Shown: piece after piece, positions 57,415-64,000 of the stretch
Position numbering within the stretch: the stretch's first letter is position 1
Layout: each line of letters starts with the position of its first letter
Assembly (NCBI GenBank): GCA_016840095.1
Contig: JAEOSZ010000011.1
Coordinates: 27,506-91,505 of the forward strand
Reading direction: 5' to 3'
From: Candidatus Heimdallarchaeota archaeon
GTDB taxonomy: Archaea > Asgardarchaeota > Heimdallarchaeia > Heimdallarchaeales > Heimdallarchaeaceae
Length of the DNA: 64,000 nt
Position numbers and translations under genes: made by a program
Notes under the pieces: model-generated
The model's input: only the letters and a program-made list of their open reading frames with translations
Told to the model about the DNA's origin: nothing
Databases searched by the model: none

Positions 57415-59571
57415 ATGCCTGAATTACGTGGAGTAGTAAAAGGAATGGACTGCGCTAACTGTGTTGCTAAAGTAAAGAAGAACATAGAAGGCTTACCAGG
57501 CATCAAAGATGTTCAGCTAAATTTAGTTTCTACAAAAATCATTGTTGACTTCGAAGAAGAATCTTCAGAAAAAGCTATAATCAAAACAATAAAACGTTTA
57601 GGATATGGTTTTGATAGTGCTTATGAAAAAAGATCTTTTTTCAATATCAAACATAATAAAAATTTACTTTTCTTCTTTGTAGGATTAATCTTTCTGATTG
57701 TTGCCTTAAGCAATGAATATTTTGGATTACCTCATTTTGCATGGTATCTACCAATTGTAACAATTGGTGGAATTCCAATTTACTTGAAAGCATTCGCTTC
57801 TATAAGAAGTAAATCTCTCGATATCGACATACTGATGGTAATTGCTGTTATTGGAGCCATGAGTATTGGATATTGGGAAGAAGCTGCAGAGATAATTGTT
57901 CTATTCACTCTTGCAGAGCTCTTAGAAGCTTTTTCGATGGACAAAGCAAGACAATCGATTAGAGAATTAATGGATTTAACTCCTCCAACAGCTATTAGGT
58001 TGATAAAAGGTAAAAAGCATGAAGAGGTTCCATTAGAAGATTTGGTTGTAGGAGATAGAGTAAGTGTTAAACCAGGTAGTAGAATTCCAATAGATGGAAA
58101 AATTGATTGGGGAAAAACCAATGTTGATCAAAGTCCAATTACTGGAGAATCTATCCCCATAAACAAAAACGTTGGAGACCCAGTATACTCTGGTTCAATA
58201 AATTTGGATGGCTATATAATTCTTCGAGTTACTCGGATGCCTCAAGAAAGTACAGTAGCTAGAATTCGACAGCTCATCGAGGAAGCTGAACAACAGAAAT
58301 CAAAAAGAGAACAGTTTATCCAGAAATTTGCAAAATTCTATACACCTATTATGGTTAGTATAGCCCTATTTGTTTTCTTAATACCTGGAGTATTCATGAA
58401 CATTCCAGTCAATGTGGATATTCTAAGGGATTGGTTATATCAAAGCTTAGTGATTTTAGTGATTTCATGTCCATGTGCTTTAGTTCTTTCAACACCAATT
58501 ACAGTTGTCACAGCAATAACTCGAGCATCAAAAAGAGGAGTATTAATCAAGGGAGGTAAATATCTAGAAGCTATCTCTTCAATAGATTATTTAGCGATGG
58601 ATAAAACCGGCACTTTATCTACTGGGAAACTCAAAGCTTACAAAGTTGAAGCTTCAGAAGGATACTCTGAGAAGGATATAATTGAAATTGCATATGGTTT
58701 AGAATATCATTCGGAACACAAGATTGCAGAAGCTATAATTGAGTTAGGTCTTGAAAACCAAGCAAGATTGTTTGGTTACAAAGATGTAGAAATAATGCCA
58801 GGAATGGGAATTAAAGGTACTAGAAAAAAGGTAACCTATTATCTTGGAAATGAATCACTTGTAGAAGAAGTCATTGGGTTGGAATCCTATGAATTAGATT
58901 GTGAAGAAACAGAGAGCATTGTATCATATGTTGTTGCTGACAAAAAAATAATTGCACACATTCATATGTCAGACCAACTAAGAAGTGAAACTAAAGAATC
59001 AATTGATGCTTTAAAGAAACTTGGAATCAAAGATATCGTTATGCTTACTGGAGATAATGAAGCAGTTGCTTCAAAAATTGCAGAAGAGTTGGGAATTAAA
59101 TATAAGGCAGAACTTTTACCCGAAGACAAAATGCTTTTCATAAAGAAGCTCAAAGAAAAAGAACAAGCAGTTGTGATGGTTGGAGATGGAATTAATGATT
59201 CTCCAGCATTAGCATTAGCAGATGTAGGGATTGCAATGGGAGCAGCTGGTACATCTATTGCCATCGAAACCTCTGATATTGTTCTTTCTTCTGATAATCT
59301 ATTCAGTCTCCCCTATTTGTTTAAGCTAAGTAAGCAGACAAAAAGAACTATTCAAATTAACATTTTTCTGTCGTTGTTTATTAAATTCTCTTTCTTCATC
59401 CTTGTATTCGTCAGTGCTGCAACTAATGTTCTTGGATCCTTCTTAGGTGATAATCTTCTATGGTTGGCTGTTCTCATTGGAGATATGGGTGCATCACTTC
59501 TAGTTATTTTGAATGCTATGAGAGTTGGAAGAAAAAGATACTTTTCAGGAGATAAGTTGCCAAAGAAATAG
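57415..59571 (+). CDS. Heavy-metal P1B-type ATPase (Zn/Cd/Pb, CadA/ZntA-like)
   Basis: HMA GMDCANC, TGES, CPC, DKTGT, SEH, MLTGD, GDGINDSP, WLAVLIGDMG. Confidence 0.93.
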   Translation: MPELRGVVKGMDCANCVAKVKKNIEGLPGIKDVQLNLVSTKIIVDFEEESSEKAIIKTIKRLGYGFDSAYEKRSFFNIKHNKNLLFFFVGLIFLIVALSNEYFGLPHFAWYLPIVTIGGIPIYLKAFASIRSKSLDIDILMVIAVIGAMSIGYWEEAAEIIVLFTLAELLEAFSMDKARQSIRELMDLTPPTAIRLIKGKKHEEVPLEDLVVGDRVSVKPGSRIPIDGKIDWGKTNVDQSPITGESIPINKNVGDPVYSGSINLDGYIILRVTRMPQESTVARIRQLIEEAEQQKSKREQFIQKFAKFYTPIMVSIALFVFLIPGVFMNIPVNVDILRDWLYQSLVILVISCPCALVLSTPITVVTAITRASKRGVLIKGGKYLEAISSIDYLAMDKTGTLSTGKLKAYKVEASEGYSEKDIIEIAYGLEYHSEHKIAEAIIELGLENQARLFGYKDVEIMPGMGIKGTRKKVTYYLGNESLVEEVIGLESYELDCEETESIVSYVVADKKIIAHIHMSDQLRSETKESIDALKKLGIKDIVMLTGDNEAVASKIAEELGIKYKAELLPEDKMLFIKKLKEKEQAVVMVGDGINDSPALALADVGIAMGAAGTSIAIETSDIVLSSDNLFSLPYLFKLSKQTKRTIQINIFLSLFIKFSFFILVFVSAATNVLGSFLGDNLLWLAVLIGDMGASLLVILNAMRVGRKRYFSGDKLPKK

Positions 59572-61489
59572 TTTAATAAACATTTTTACAAAAGAAAAAT
59601 TGGTAAAGCTAATGAGTAAGCCAGATAAGACACTTAACAAAGCAGTTGTTTACATTTTTATTGGTGTATTAATTATTTCATCAATATTTGCTGTAATGAT
59701 GTTTGGTCCCCGACCTGGCCCTCAAAGCAGTATTTTCAATACAACACTTAGATATTATACAAAGGGAACCCAACAGTTATACTATGGAGACTATGCAAAC
59801 TCTATGATACAAGATATAGGTGATTTAGGAATTGTTGTTACAGATTATTCTATGGAATATGCAATATTCTTAGATAATGTTATTGGATCTAAAGAATTTG
59901 ATATGGCAATTATTGAGCTTGAAGGACTCAATGCACCTCATCTAGAGCTATTGTTTAGAGAAGGTTCAAGTCTAAATGTTTTCAATTTTGCAGATAGTAT
60001 TGATGGTGGTTTAACAAACGAATTTATAGACAATATAACTCGAGAAATGGACTCCTATGAAAGGAAGAATCTTATTTACGACTTACAAGAGCATCTTATG
60101 GATAATGTAGTACCAATGATTCCACTTTTCACTCCAGCAAGAACCTTTGCATACTGGAATAATTTGGAAGGATTTACTAGTAAATGGGGAATATCTGATA
60201 GTTTGCCATATATGTCCTTTGATGGATTACACGATAATCAAGATTCAATCACAGAACTAAAGATCGGAATGGGTGGATGGTATGATCTAAATCCACTTAC
60301 TATGACTGAAGATGGTGAGAAGTTACTTGTTTCACTTATTATGGATAAACTAATTCATTTAGATGAAAAAGGGACTCCTACACACTATGGTTTGATAGAT
60401 AGCTGGGAATATGAAAATGATACTACTCTTCTGCTTCACGTGAGAAACGGTGTAAATTGGCAACCAGATGTAGAAGGAATTTTTCCTAGCGAACAAGTTA
60501 CGATAGATGATGTTATGTTCTCCTTAGATATGATTACAAGCCCGTATGCGAATCTGAATAACGAGATCTTTAAATGGATAGATTCTTATGAAGATCACAA
60601 TAGCACAACTATAGCTGTTTACATAGATTCAGATCCCGCTACTCCAGAGAAGGAACCTTATGCATTCGCACTTGAAGATTTGTCAATTTATCCTTTTCCT
60701 GAGTATTATCTGAATGTTGAAAGCACTATACAAGAAATTGTTAATTCTGCAAGATGGACAAAGTTTAGACAAAATCCATTTGGAACAGGTAAATATACTT
60801 TTAATGCAACAGATAGTCAGGTTGATCTTACTGCATCTTTGAAAAGATTCAACAATTGGCATGGTGTAGGTGTTGATCCAATTAAAATCCCAAATCTAGT
60901 TTTTGAAACAATAGAAGTTCAAACTTATCCTGAATCCTATGCTATGAATCTGGAATTACAAGAAGGAAGTAGAATAGATATAGCTGATTTTGGAAAAAAT
61001 CCAGCGATGGTTTTATCTATTCCTGAAGACAATTTTAATGTAGAATTCAAAGTAGAGAATTCTTTAGTTTTTGTGGCTTTTAATTTGGATAATGATATTT
61101 TTGGGGGAGCAAATAATTATGTCACAACAAGCGAACCTGGAGTTTCGAAAGCACTCGCAATTCGAAAAGCATTATCATATATGATACAAAAAACACTCAT
61201 GAATGATGCATTCCATGAGGGATTGTTTAATATTACAGATACTCCGATTTCGAGATATTTCACTGATTATTATTATCAAAGTGTTACAATATATCCATAC
61301 AGTGTTTCAGAAGCAATTAATTATCTTAATATAGCAGGATTCAATATCTCAACTGAAACAAATGGAACTACTGAAGAGTCTAGTTTTGAAATAGTTAGCT
61401 CATTATTATCTCTAGGACTCTTCACTACAATTATGATTACATTAAGAAAAAGAAAAACGAAAGGTGAATTAAATGAACCGTGTAAATGA
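59525..61489 (+). CDS. Family-5 (OppA/DppA-like) ABC substrate-binding protein, circularly permuted (probable start 59612)
   Basis: DLNP, SWEY, VTIDDVMFS, PFGTGKY, VAFN, IRKALSY, YSVSEAINYLNIAG; the usual C-terminal segment lies at the N-terminus; TM helices at both ends. Confidence 0.8.
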   Translation: MEEKDTFQEISCQRNSLINIFTKEKLVKLMSKPDKTLNKAVVYIFIGVLIISSIFAVMMFGPRPGPQSSIFNTTLRYYTKGTQQLYYGDYANSMIQDIGDLGIVVTDYSMEYAIFLDNVIGSKEFDMAIIELEGLNAPHLELLFREGSSLNVFNFADSIDGGLTNEFIDNITREMDSYERKNLIYDLQEHLMDNVVPMIPLFTPARTFAYWNNLEGFTSKWGISDSLPYMSFDGLHDNQDSITELKIGMGGWYDLNPLTMTEDGEKLLVSLIMDKLIHLDEKGTPTHYGLIDSWEYENDTTLLLHVRNGVNWQPDVEGIFPSEQVTIDDVMFSLDMITSPYANLNNEIFKWIDSYEDHNSTTIAVYIDSDPATPEKEPYAFALEDLSIYPFPEYYLNVESTIQEIVNSARWTKFRQNPFGTGKYTFNATDSQVDLTASLKRFNNWHGVGVDPIKIPNLVFETIEVQTYPESYAMNLELQEGSRIDIADFGKNPAMVLSIPEDNFNVEFKVENSLVFVAFNLDNDIFGGANNYVTTSEPGVSKALAIRKALSYMIQKTLMNDAFHEGLFNITDTPISRYFTDYYYQSVTIYPYSVSEAINYLNIAGFNISTETNGTTEESSFEIVSSLLSLGLFTTIMITLRKRKTKGELNEPCK

Positions 61490-62192
61490 AATAAATAATC
61501 TAAATCTAAAAGGAAAACCTATTATTCAATCTTTTAGTGGAAGTGGAGCAATAGGAACAATATTATCTACATTCCTTGTTAAATCTTTGAAAATGGAGCA
61601 AGTGGCAGTGGTTCATGCTGAAGATTTACCTCCTGTAGCAATAGTAAAGGATGGGTTAATTGAACAACCAATAAGAATATTCCAAAATGATCAAATCGCA
61701 TTGATGTCATGTGAGGTTTCTATACCCTACAGTGCTGTACCAGATTTTATAGAAATGTTAGTTGATTTCTATATTCAAAATGAAGTATCTTATATCGTTC
61801 CTGTAGGAGGATTGCCATCTATAATGACACCTTACGAAGAAATAAACTGCTATGGAATAGCCAGCAATGAAGAAACACTGACTTTTCTTGAAGAGAAAGG
61901 AGTTACATTTCTAGAAGAAGGAGTGATTTATGGAACAGTAGTTCAAACCTTAGAGCTCTGTAACACTAAAGGTTTTGATGCAAATTTCGCATTATTGGTT
62001 GAGTGTGATCCTAACATAACAAGTTATGATTCAACTAAGGTACTGGTTCAGAATCTGGCTAAGATTTTTGAGTTTGAATTTGATGAAGAGGAATTCGATA
62101 ATGTCACAAATATAATTAAATCAAGAATCTTAGAAAGCACAAAAATATTCAGAGAAGACACAATGGATAAAACAAGAGAAAGCCATTTGTAA
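61473..62192 (+). CDS. Proteasome assembly chaperone PAC2-family protein
   Basis: SFSGSGAIGTI, LPPVAIVKDG...PIRIF, VPVGGL, C-terminal HL. Confidence 0.85.
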   Translation: MNRVNEINNLNLKGKPIIQSFSGSGAIGTILSTFLVKSLKMEQVAVVHAEDLPPVAIVKDGLIEQPIRIFQNDQIALMSCEVSIPYSAVPDFIEMLVDFYIQNEVSYIVPVGGLPSIMTPYEEINCYGIASNEETLTFLEEKGVTFLEEGVIYGTVVQTLELCNTKGFDANFALLVECDPNITSYDSTKVLVQNLAKIFEFEFDEEEFDNVTNIIKSRILESTKIFREDTMDKTRESHL

Positions 62193-62296: not shown

Positions 62297-62344
62297 TTTG
62301 TCGGAATAAAACGACTGCCGACAAATTACAAAAAAGTTTAAATA
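62297..62344 (+). promoter_or_regulatory. Archaeal promoter (BRE plus TATA TTTAAATA) preceded by an inverted repeat
   Basis: TTTGTCGG (62297-62304), 13-nt spacer, CCGACAAA (62318-62325); A-rich BRE; TATA at 62337-62344, about 23 nt before the structured region. Confidence 0.6.
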
Positions 62345-62366: not shown

Positions 62367-62731
62367 GGTTAATGGCAGGCTAGGTTAGTGCCCAATTGGA
62401 AGGTCAAAAAGGGACTGCAAACTGAACAGGAAGAGATATCCGATGCTTCTTCCCTCTAAGGGAAACTCAGGGACAAGGTTGAACCCCTTTTTAGATGGTT
62501 TGAACCCCCATTTGGGCTTAGTTAAGACCTCCTAAGCCTGAAATCCCCCAGAACCAGCATGTATTTGCTGGCATCAAACTTCGGTTTGATAAAAAAGGAC
62601 CAGACATCTTCTGTCTGCCAGAAAGGTTCGGTCTTGATGGACCAGATCCTGGAACCCCCAACCAAACCCCCGAAGCGTCGAGTTAGAATTTCCTTCCTGT
62701 TCAGGCAGAAAACCCTTTAGGGTTAACCTTC
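62367..62731 (+). ncRNA. Unclassified structured ncRNA with a long closing helix and BHB-like motif
   Basis: No ORF in the track and more GC-rich than the flanks. 62422-62433 pairs perfectly with 62693-62704; further pairings 62441-62449/62672-62680, 62415-62418/62705-62708 and 62408-62413/62713-62718; at least 7 internal hairpins including cUUCGg. G-U pairs indicate the + strand; promoter upstream, T-tract downstream. Confidence 0.72.
62668..62718 (+). repeat. Direct repeat copy 1 (3' arm of the ncRNA)
   Basis: 48/51 identical to 63449-63499. Confidence 0.95.
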
Positions 62732-62784
62732 ATTTTTTCCTGAAGTTCGAAAGATAAATAAGTAATTCTTACTTAGTTTTCTAG

Positions 62785-63462
62785 ATGAAAGGAGCTCGAA
62801 AACAGATTACATCATGCTGTGTATTTGTATTTATTTTCCTTTCAAGTCACTTACTATTTACTCAAGCTGCACTTTCAGGTTACACTATCTTTTCAAGAAT
62901 ATCATTAATTAACCTCCCACCTACAATTATTTATCGTGAGAATTATCCCAATCAAACTTTATTCGAATTTGATGGTACTTTGGAGATAATCAATAATTAT
63001 ACTCAAACGTTATCTATTACTTCTTCAACGACTTGTTTAGTTTTTTATACAGGAATCTTGTCTTTCGAAAATGAAACCTTATCAGGTACTATACGGGGAC
63101 CTGAACTCTGTGGTAATGCTTTTACTACCCATTATTTTGATCCAGGGATTACTGAAGGATATGTTCGTTTTAAAATATCAGTAAATAATACTCTCAGTTC
63201 TCTTCCTGATGGAAATTTTACTATATGGACTATCTTTGATGATAGTTCTGGAGAACATAGTTACATTCATTATCCTTCAATTATTCAAGTAAATGGTTCA
63301 GATATCAATGTAGTACATACTGGAGCTAATGAAAACTTTACTTTTCCTATTGAAACTTCTTCAACTCCAACAAGTACGATTGTCTTTTCAATGTCTATTC
63401 CATGTTTCTTAGGGATTCTAGTAATTCTTCTAAGGAAGTACGTAAAAACCCCGAAGTGTTGA
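62785..63462 (+). CDS. Secreted Ig-like surface protein with a C-terminal TM anchor
   Basis: Signal-like N-terminus, beta-rich domain with several NxS/T sites and a Cys pair (weakly BsuPI-like), Ser/Thr linker, TM, basic tail; the stop codon lies inside repeat copy 2. Confidence 0.7.
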   Translation: MKGARKQITSCCVFVFIFLSSHLLFTQAALSGYTIFSRISLINLPPTIIYRENYPNQTLFEFDGTLEIINNYTQTLSITSSTTCLVFYTGILSFENETLSGTIRGPELCGNAFTTHYFDPGITEGYVRFKISVNNTLSSLPDGNFTIWTIFDDSSGEHSYIHYPSIIQVNGSDINVVHTGANENFTFPIETSSTPTSTIVFSMSIPCFLGILVILLRKYVKTPKC

Positions 63463-63499
63463 GTTAGAAGTTCCTTCCTGTTCAGGCAGAAAACCCTTT
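63449..63499 (+). repeat. Direct repeat copy 2 of the ncRNA 3' arm
   Basis: 48/51 identical to 62668-62718; followed, like copy 1, by TTAACCTT and a T-tract. Confidence 0.95.
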
Positions 63500-63553: not shown

Positions 63554-64000
63554 CTAAAGATTTGTTAGTTTTTCTTGTAGAACATTTCGTACTTCTGATA
63601 TATTCTCTCCAGTTTCATTTGAGACTCTTACAGCTGGCAGAACATTTTCTCCATACTTTCTGAATAAGGACTCCATTTTCTTCTTATCCTTTGTTCTCTG
63701 AAGCCCTTTACTGGTTTCACTGACATCTATATGTGATATAATCGGAAGTATTTCTGCCTTAGGAAATCTTCTGCGTAGGCTTTTTAGCCAATAACGAATC
63801 TTGTTGTCTTTGACGCTTCTACTTATATCAAGAACAATAATGAATATGGTTTCATTTGTCAGTGTAAGATTTTTAATTCTCCTGAAATATCTCTTTTCCC
63901 AGGTACTAGTTACGCAATAAATTAGTCCCTCCTGTTTTCCTTCTTCTAAGGAGATCTCATGAATATCTCCTATTTCTTGCCTAGCAATTTTTCTCTCTGA
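63554..64000 (-). CDS. C-terminal part of a degenerate Roc/small-GTPase-like domain protein (5' end outside the window)
   Basis: Manual translation of a 149-codon open frame: LTNETIFIIVLDIS...IRYWLKSLRRRFPKAEILPIISHID...VSNETGENISEVRNVL*. Confidence 0.65.
   Translation of the reverse strand, partial: SERKIARQEIGDIHEISLEEGKQEGLIYCVTSTWEKRYFRRIKNLTLTNETIFIIVLDISRSVKDNKIRYWLKSLRRRFPKAEILPIISHIDVSETSKGLQRTKDKKKMESLFRKYGENVLPAVRVSNETGENISEVRNVLQEKLTNL

Follow-up and report, generated by a model that had tools for sequence, protein, structure and literature searches.

A stretch of DNA of 64,000 nucleotides from a Candidatus Heimdallarchaeota archaeon (the window) carries, in all likelihood, a stand-alone, single-copy RNA gene of the Heimdallarchaeaceae whose transcript is matured into a ring by way of a BHB (bulge-helix-bulge) motif together with the endonuclease EndA and the ligase RtcB. 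The RNA is real and expressed, and it is very probably circular; we infer that it is covalently closed in the cell and that EndA makes the cuts. It represents a new class of RNA produced by a biogenesis route that is already known, and no description of it was found in the literature searched. A precursor of ~370 nt, driven by the gene's own TATA promoter, would pair its ends to form the BHB, a two-subunit EndA would cut after 62420 and 62710, and RtcB would join the cut ends, with the short flanks discarded and a stable 290-nt ring left as the functional product (Table 1).

Table 1. Features of the RNA gene and its surroundings. Positions refer to the window, except for the last four rows, which refer to contigs of the host genome (G000).
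Feature	Position	Strand	Basis or remarks
PAC2-family gene	61473-62192	+	upstream neighbour, conserved in 3/5 genera
Archaeal promoter: purine-rich BRE, then TATA box (62337-62344)	62330-62344	+	sequence
5' leader, predicted to be processed away	62367-62420	+	no cover by RNA contigs
5' BHB arm	62408-62433	+	outer and central helix, bulge (predicted cut after 62420), P1 5' strand
Outer helix	62408-62413/62713-62718	+	sequence
A.A mismatch beside outer helix	A62414 facing A62712		sequence
Central helix, 4 bp	62415-62418/62705-62708	+	sequence
AAA bulges, 3 nt each	62419-62421 and 62709-62711	+	sequence
Mature RNA, very probably circular, 290 nt	62421-62710	+	RNA contigs with head-to-tail junction
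Inner helix P1, 12 bp	62422-62433/62693-62704	+	sequence
P2, 5' strand	62441-62448	+	pairs with 62673-62680; double-sided change in four pairs
Optional hairpin P3	62450-62464	+	lost from six close relatives
P4, 5' strand	62477-62481	+	pairs with 62659-62663, closes large A/C-rich multiloop; conserved, scant covariation
AAYCCC motifs, further starts	62482, 62503, 62542, 62653, 62665	+	sequence
Hairpin P6	62514-62539	+	loop bears invariant GACCUCCU (62526-62533), the 16S rRNA 3' tail match
Second invariant 8-mer CCCCAGAA	62546-62553	+	just past P6
Variable hairpin modules	62554-62651	+	62554-62571, 62573-62590, 62601-62617, 62618-62651
3' BHB arm	62693-62718	+	P1 3' strand, central helix, bulge (predicted cut after 62710), outer helix
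3' trailer	62711-62738	+	small hairpin 62711-62724 and T6 tract 62733-62738; no cover by RNA contigs
Cassette gene, 225 aa	62785-63462	+	hydrophobic N- and C-terminal segments; no Pfam family
3'-end duplication pair	C134 7567-7643/8580-8656		
3'-end duplication pair	C11 53870-53918/54931-54979		
3'-end duplication pair	C158 12214-12259/14153-14198		
3'-end duplication pair	C163 157554-157606/159235-159287		

An earlier note, made from the letters of the DNA, had predicted the two cuts and had proposed a search of RNA libraries, and sediment RNA runs do contain the ring sequence. Part of the window is present in 24 runs from 18 studies, and the junction evidence, which consists of assembled contigs showing neither strand, read counts nor covalent closure, comes from the four runs examined, representing four studies. 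In all four of these runs, contig cover is confined to 62418-62711, and the RNA contigs contain a head-to-tail junction with exactly three A, as expected from the predicted cuts, the exact position of each cut being ambiguous within the run of A. In three runs, loose contig ends run on from 62711 to the 5' end, or lead from the 3' end into 62419. One contig (run X1) is the window's own sequence over 62512-62711 (200 identical nucleotides, its private hairpins included) and crosses the junction into the 5' end, so the variant of the motif with an A.A mismatch is joined as well. Another (run X2, 292 nt, from a relative) has the same 30 bases at its start and end, and is therefore a closed loop of ~262 nt. 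The junction sequence is absent from the DNA of the host genome, and homologues in a collection of DNA metagenomes lack it too. In that collection 35 sequences matched the junction pattern but proved to be unrelated (0/35 homologues), and all lay on contigs >1 kb, so that small DNA circles would escape this collection.

Two EndA subunits (~185 and ~190 aa) and RtcB are encoded in the genome; Asgard EndA is an (alpha-beta)2-type enzyme, reported to have broad specificity, and its L1 loop confers tolerance of relaxed motifs (PMC5829648). A mature RNA that is cut by EndA and stays linear in the cell, with the junction produced by ligation during library preparation or by end-jumping of reverse transcriptase, would have both of its ends kept together by P1, and with contigs rather than reads underlying the junction, end-joining in the library would look the same. 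Such an artefact is nevertheless very unlikely, since four independent studies, and variants from several species, all show the exact three-A junction, one contig forms a closed loop, the ligase is present in the genome, and the known archaeal BHB products are ligated (PMC4731332, PMC12558985).

The two arms of the BHB were found exactly where the earlier note had placed them, and the BRE/TATA element and T tract that it assigned to the gene are likewise present, with the TATA box kept upstream in all 24 homologues examined. The A.A mismatch that it described is a feature of the window's subclade (7 of 22 homologues) and does not extend beyond it: elsewhere the position is occupied by A-U (14 homologues) or G-C (one), giving a canonical BHB. 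Transcription would start near 62367, and the T6 tract is the likely terminator. Assignment of the RNA to the plus strand follows from its TATA box and T tract and from the BHB polarity; a sigma-70 promoter scan was set aside as not applicable to archaea. The RNA segment has 48% G+C against 28-31% in its flanks, and its predicted fold beats 100 of 100 shuffles (z -4.0, or z -5.9 when folded as a circle).

Conservation of the BHB geometry, on which the earlier note had staked its prediction, is evident in 5/5 genera of the Heimdallarchaeaceae, where the motif is kept with compensatory changes. The central helix is 100% paired in 22 homologues, including two compensated pairs, and reads CUGC/GCAG, CUGU/GCAG, AUGU/GCAU, CUAC/GUAG or GUGU/GCAC depending on the clade, with two 3-nt bulges in every case. 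Over the same 22 homologues, paired cells make up 96.4%, and double-sided change occurs in 13 of the 47 proposed pairs, a count inflated by the relatedness of the homologues but reached by 0/500 shuffles and compared with 0-6 pairs in slid controls. Covariation backs P1, P2 and P6; for P4, P5 and P8, which are conserved, there is little or no covariation.

Within the family, the gene was found in 26 of 30 genomes by BLAST and in 27 of 30 by profile search, both single-contig genomes included, and all 18 Heimdallarchaeaceae genomes at >=88% completeness have a single full copy. The host genome has one full copy and one duplicate of the 3' end. In one relative (G021) the gene is split, with overlap, between two contig ends (C310 1-183 and C90 1406-1549), an assembly break and not a second copy. 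Outside the family, a two-motif pattern is at background (13 of 369 other Asgard genomes versus 14 for the reversed control, against 25 of 30 family genomes), and no homologue lies upstream of elp3 in 25 other Heimdallarchaeia. No copy of the gene turned up in those other Asgard genomes that were searched with a sequence-only model and a 91-position core model, which very distant homologues could escape. Weak profile matches outside the family were rejected, being located within open reading frames or partial and lacking the BHB arms.

The circle, which ranges from 213 to 290 nt among homologues, is built on a rod (P1, an internal loop, P2, the optional P3 and P4) that closes a multiloop whose unpaired parts are G-poor and ~70% A+C. 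Hairpin modules are gained and lost at fixed points, and those of the window are skipped by the RNA contigs of relatives. The only 8-mers common to all 24 circles are GACCUCCU and CCCCAGAA. Two segments of the window (62479-62487 and 62497-62509) show complementarity of 8-12 nt to the T arms of numerous host tRNAs; a function by antisense pairing with the T-loops (up to 12 nt) was dropped, the motif being missing in the most distant genus.

The proposal of the earlier note that the ring belongs to no recognised family agrees with the absence of Rfam matches in the window and in six diverse homologues (scanned in genomic order); nothing in the window passed the gathering thresholds, and at E up to 10 there was nothing credible, nor any partial match around the RNA gene. 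That the ring is instead a diverged or circularly permuted form of a familiar RNA (SRP RNA, RNase P/MRP RNA, Y RNA, omega-RNA, tmRNA or an rRNA guide) would suit the size of 210-290 nt, the BHB processing as in the Thermoproteus SRP RNA (PMC4731332), and the insertions at the 3' end, a site also used in tRNA and tmRNA genes, but is extremely unlikely in view of these Rfam results. Among the individual candidates rejected, the ring fits neither SRP RNA, judged by covariance models and the helix 8 motif, nor RNase P/MRP RNA, judged by its models and the P4 pseudoknot with conserved regions I and V, and the doubled circle aligns neither to the host SRP RNA (contig C59) nor to the host RNase P RNA (contig C122). 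For a Y RNA, Ro60 occurs in just 2/31 family genomes and the required U-A pair is lost in two genera; for an omega-RNA (IS200/IS605), no tnpB adjoins and the gene is single-copy; for a box C/D RNA or rRNA guide, there are no C/D motifs among the shared k-mers and no conserved complementarity to 16S or 23S rRNA; and for a tmRNA, ARAGORN found no tRNA-like domain. A coding circle was dismissed for want of a conserved reading frame (a 19-codon Met-led frame of one subclade is broken by single-base indels elsewhere), a viroid-like or mobile circular RNA because the gene is chromosomal, syntenic, without a ribozyme match and absent from viral contigs, and a telomerase-like template because the genome has no matching repeats.

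In biogenesis the ring resembles known BHB-made circles, but it belongs to none of the families tested. The circular SRP RNA of Thermoproteus tenax is a BHB-made circle of like biogenesis; however, it is an SRP RNA in permuted form with SRP19 and SRP54 as its binding partners (PMC4731332), whereas the Heimdall ring has no SRP match and SRP RNA is encoded in its host by another gene, which is itself flanked by a BHB. The flanks of that gene (C59 18037-18342, minus strand) are canonical, with a central helix UAGC/GCUA and two 3-nt bulges, and a circular SRP RNA of ~300 nt without permutation is predicted from them. The circular precursors of 16S and 23S rRNA in archaea, including Asgard archaea (PMC12918454), likewise have a BHB stem at their ends and are excised as circles with the flanks discarded, but the Heimdall ring is not rRNA and lies outside any rRNA operon, its likeness being limited to the 7-8 nt of the 16S tail. 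The circular omega-RNAs of IS200/IS605 elements (PMC12558985) are also archaeal circular non-coding RNAs of similar size; in contrast, the Heimdall ring is single-copy and vertical, has a clear BHB, and lacks a tnpB neighbour or an Rfam match.

Archaeal tRNA intron circles (e.g., that of the tRNA-Trp intron, PMC12558985) and metazoan tricRNAs (PMC4536317) share the topology of the Heimdall ring, which corresponds to the intron side, with a 7-nt loop closing. Unlike the tRNA intron circles, however, the ring has no surrounding tRNA and no conserved box C/D, and it is the ring that is conserved and not its flanks. The ring might be a freed tRNA intron, left over from a tRNA-Cys or tRNA-Tyr gene that decayed, its exons wearing away as its intron became larger and took on a role; this is a hypothesis of origin that fits any function, and it appears improbable. 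The joined flanks do give a 7-nt loop equal to the anticodon loop of host tRNA-Cys, cut at the canonical 37/38 position, and the residue corresponding to tRNA U33 is an invariant U, but a 7-nt loop arises from any BHB and the 'anticodon' varies (GCA, GUA, ACA). The 5' leaders differ from clade to clade and are not tRNA-like in a profile test, scoring -16 to +1 bits on the profile of host tRNA 5' halves compared with 16-22 for true halves, and just 1 of 24 beats its own shuffles at p<0.05. Downstream there is no T arm or acceptor 3' strand, and ARAGORN finds no tRNA. A tRNA-derived origin of the flanks is not supported.

Given the ring, the leading reading of its function, which is tentative and placed ahead of that of a protein sponge, is a link to translation, with the ring acting as an anti-Shine-Dalgarno regulator or 16S-tail decoy, favoured because the P6 loop carries a match to the 16S tail and the host uses Shine-Dalgarno leaders. 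Eight bases of the P6 loop recur at the end of the family's 16S rRNA (ACCUCCU, then A), and the first 4-6 bases of GACCUCCU are unpaired in 9 of 10 folds, the last two usually being paired within P6. The use of leaders by the host is seen in the counts of GGAGG (64 proximal versus 8 distal) and GGTGA (161 versus 12). The P6 loop would present its copy of the 16S rRNA 3' tail (ACCUCCUA) for translation control, and this copy could pair with mRNA leaders of the GGAGG type or divert 16S-tail-binding proteins by acting as their decoy. The fuller proposal, that a dedicated, abundant ring mimics the 16S 3' tail and controls translation initiation (or ribosome maturation or dormancy) in trans, is doubtful. 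The match is just 7-8 nt and was spotted after the fact, GGAGG occurs in only ~3% of called genes and the commoner GGTGA leader would mismatch, and confinement to one family speaks against a core translation role. The 16S rRNA itself has a 31-nt hairpin between helix 45 and the anti-Shine-Dalgarno tail in two genera (L145 in G001 and L146 in G022); this hairpin, an expansion segment or small intron, is absent from the single-contig genomes.

Protein-sponge RNAs of the CsrB/RsmZ type carry short single-stranded GGA motifs repeated among variable hairpins. The ring shares this arrangement, but its motifs are C-rich and it is circular. Following the logic of CsrB, the ring may be a multivalent protein sponge or scaffold in which single-stranded AACCC/GAACC repeats bind copies of a single protein and GACCUCCU resembles the 16S tail by chance, an explanation that we hold to be only slightly less likely than the translation-linked one. 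Most circles have 4-6 AAYCCC-type motifs compared with 0.5-1.0 in shuffles (9 of 10 homologues; the pattern was picked post hoc), the unpaired regions have the A+C bias described above, and a GAA before the C-run was re-created by two unrelated hairpin insertions. However, the motif count is only 2 in one genus, the invariance of a unique 8-mer is left unexplained, and the search for candidate partner proteins found only the usual KH proteins, with no family-specific RNA-binding protein identified. Binding of a protein partner by the C-rich repeats may also form part of the mechanism proposed here.

Downstream of the gene, 63445-63499 (plus strand) duplicates its 3' end (55 bp, 93% identical, 781 bp away). 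Relatives have up to six such copies of the 3' arm, each closing a cassette of 0.4-9 kb, and two genera have none. The copies are read as scars of cassette insertions that restore the 3' end, so that the RNA gene is kept intact through repeated insertions. The cassette gene of the window encodes a probable surface protein, as predicted from its sequence, and belongs to a family that is frequent in cassettes but occurs without them too. Cassette arrays in relatives (L103 3769-19928 in G022, L105 in G009, L108 in G019 and L107 in G026) encode mostly membrane-anchored surface proteins, with the 3' arm of the RNA gene repeated at the end of each cassette, and no integrase was seen beside the arrays among the genes examined. 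Host protein genes also show 3'-end duplications of 45-77 bp around inserted DNA (Table 1), one of them at a small zinc-ribbon gene resembling RpoP, which suggests a general route of gene capture at gene ends. Alternatively, the 3'-arm copies could be functional splice arms that allow read-through rings to take in cassette genes (1,071 nt, 62421-63491, in the window), an idea with little probability. The window's copy retains the full 26-nt arm with unchanged pairing energy, and one relative has as many as six copies; against this, the copies have changed in their 16-nt pairing core in ways that disrupt pairs more often than preserve them (4 versus 2), with pair-breaking changes gathering in older copies, a terminator lies ahead of each cassette, similar duplications occur at the protein genes, and two genera do without copies.

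On the upstream side, the PAC2-family gene shares 90% identity with its counterpart in Ca. Heimdallarchaeota AB_125, whose contig bears the 5' part of the RNA gene. Further upstream, 59525-61489 encodes a solute-binding protein of family 5 that has a hydrophobic segment at either end and lacks ABC partners in its neighbourhood; at least two genera retain this gene upstream of the RNA gene. Directly after the 3'-end duplicate, 63554-64000 (minus strand) encodes the C-terminal part of a small Roc/Ras-like GTPase; this gene was not found beside the RNA gene in relatives and is probably the next cassette.

To our knowledge, the BHB circles described so far either arise in the processing of familiar RNAs (rRNA, tRNA introns, SRP RNA) or are forms of them. 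The Heimdallarchaeaceae gene, in contrast, appears to exist solely for making a ring of no known family, and this ring is readily visible in metatranscriptomes of sediment. It enlarges the repertoire of the Heimdallarchaeia by a large structured RNA and indicates that the tRNA-splicing machinery can be the standard maturation route for an unrelated RNA. The exact junction, the invariant loop, and the existence of relatives with complete genomes from enrichment cultures offer testable handles. If the translation-linked reading is true, an archaeal lineage near the origin of eukaryotes would possess a ring-shaped anti-Shine-Dalgarno regulator or decoy.
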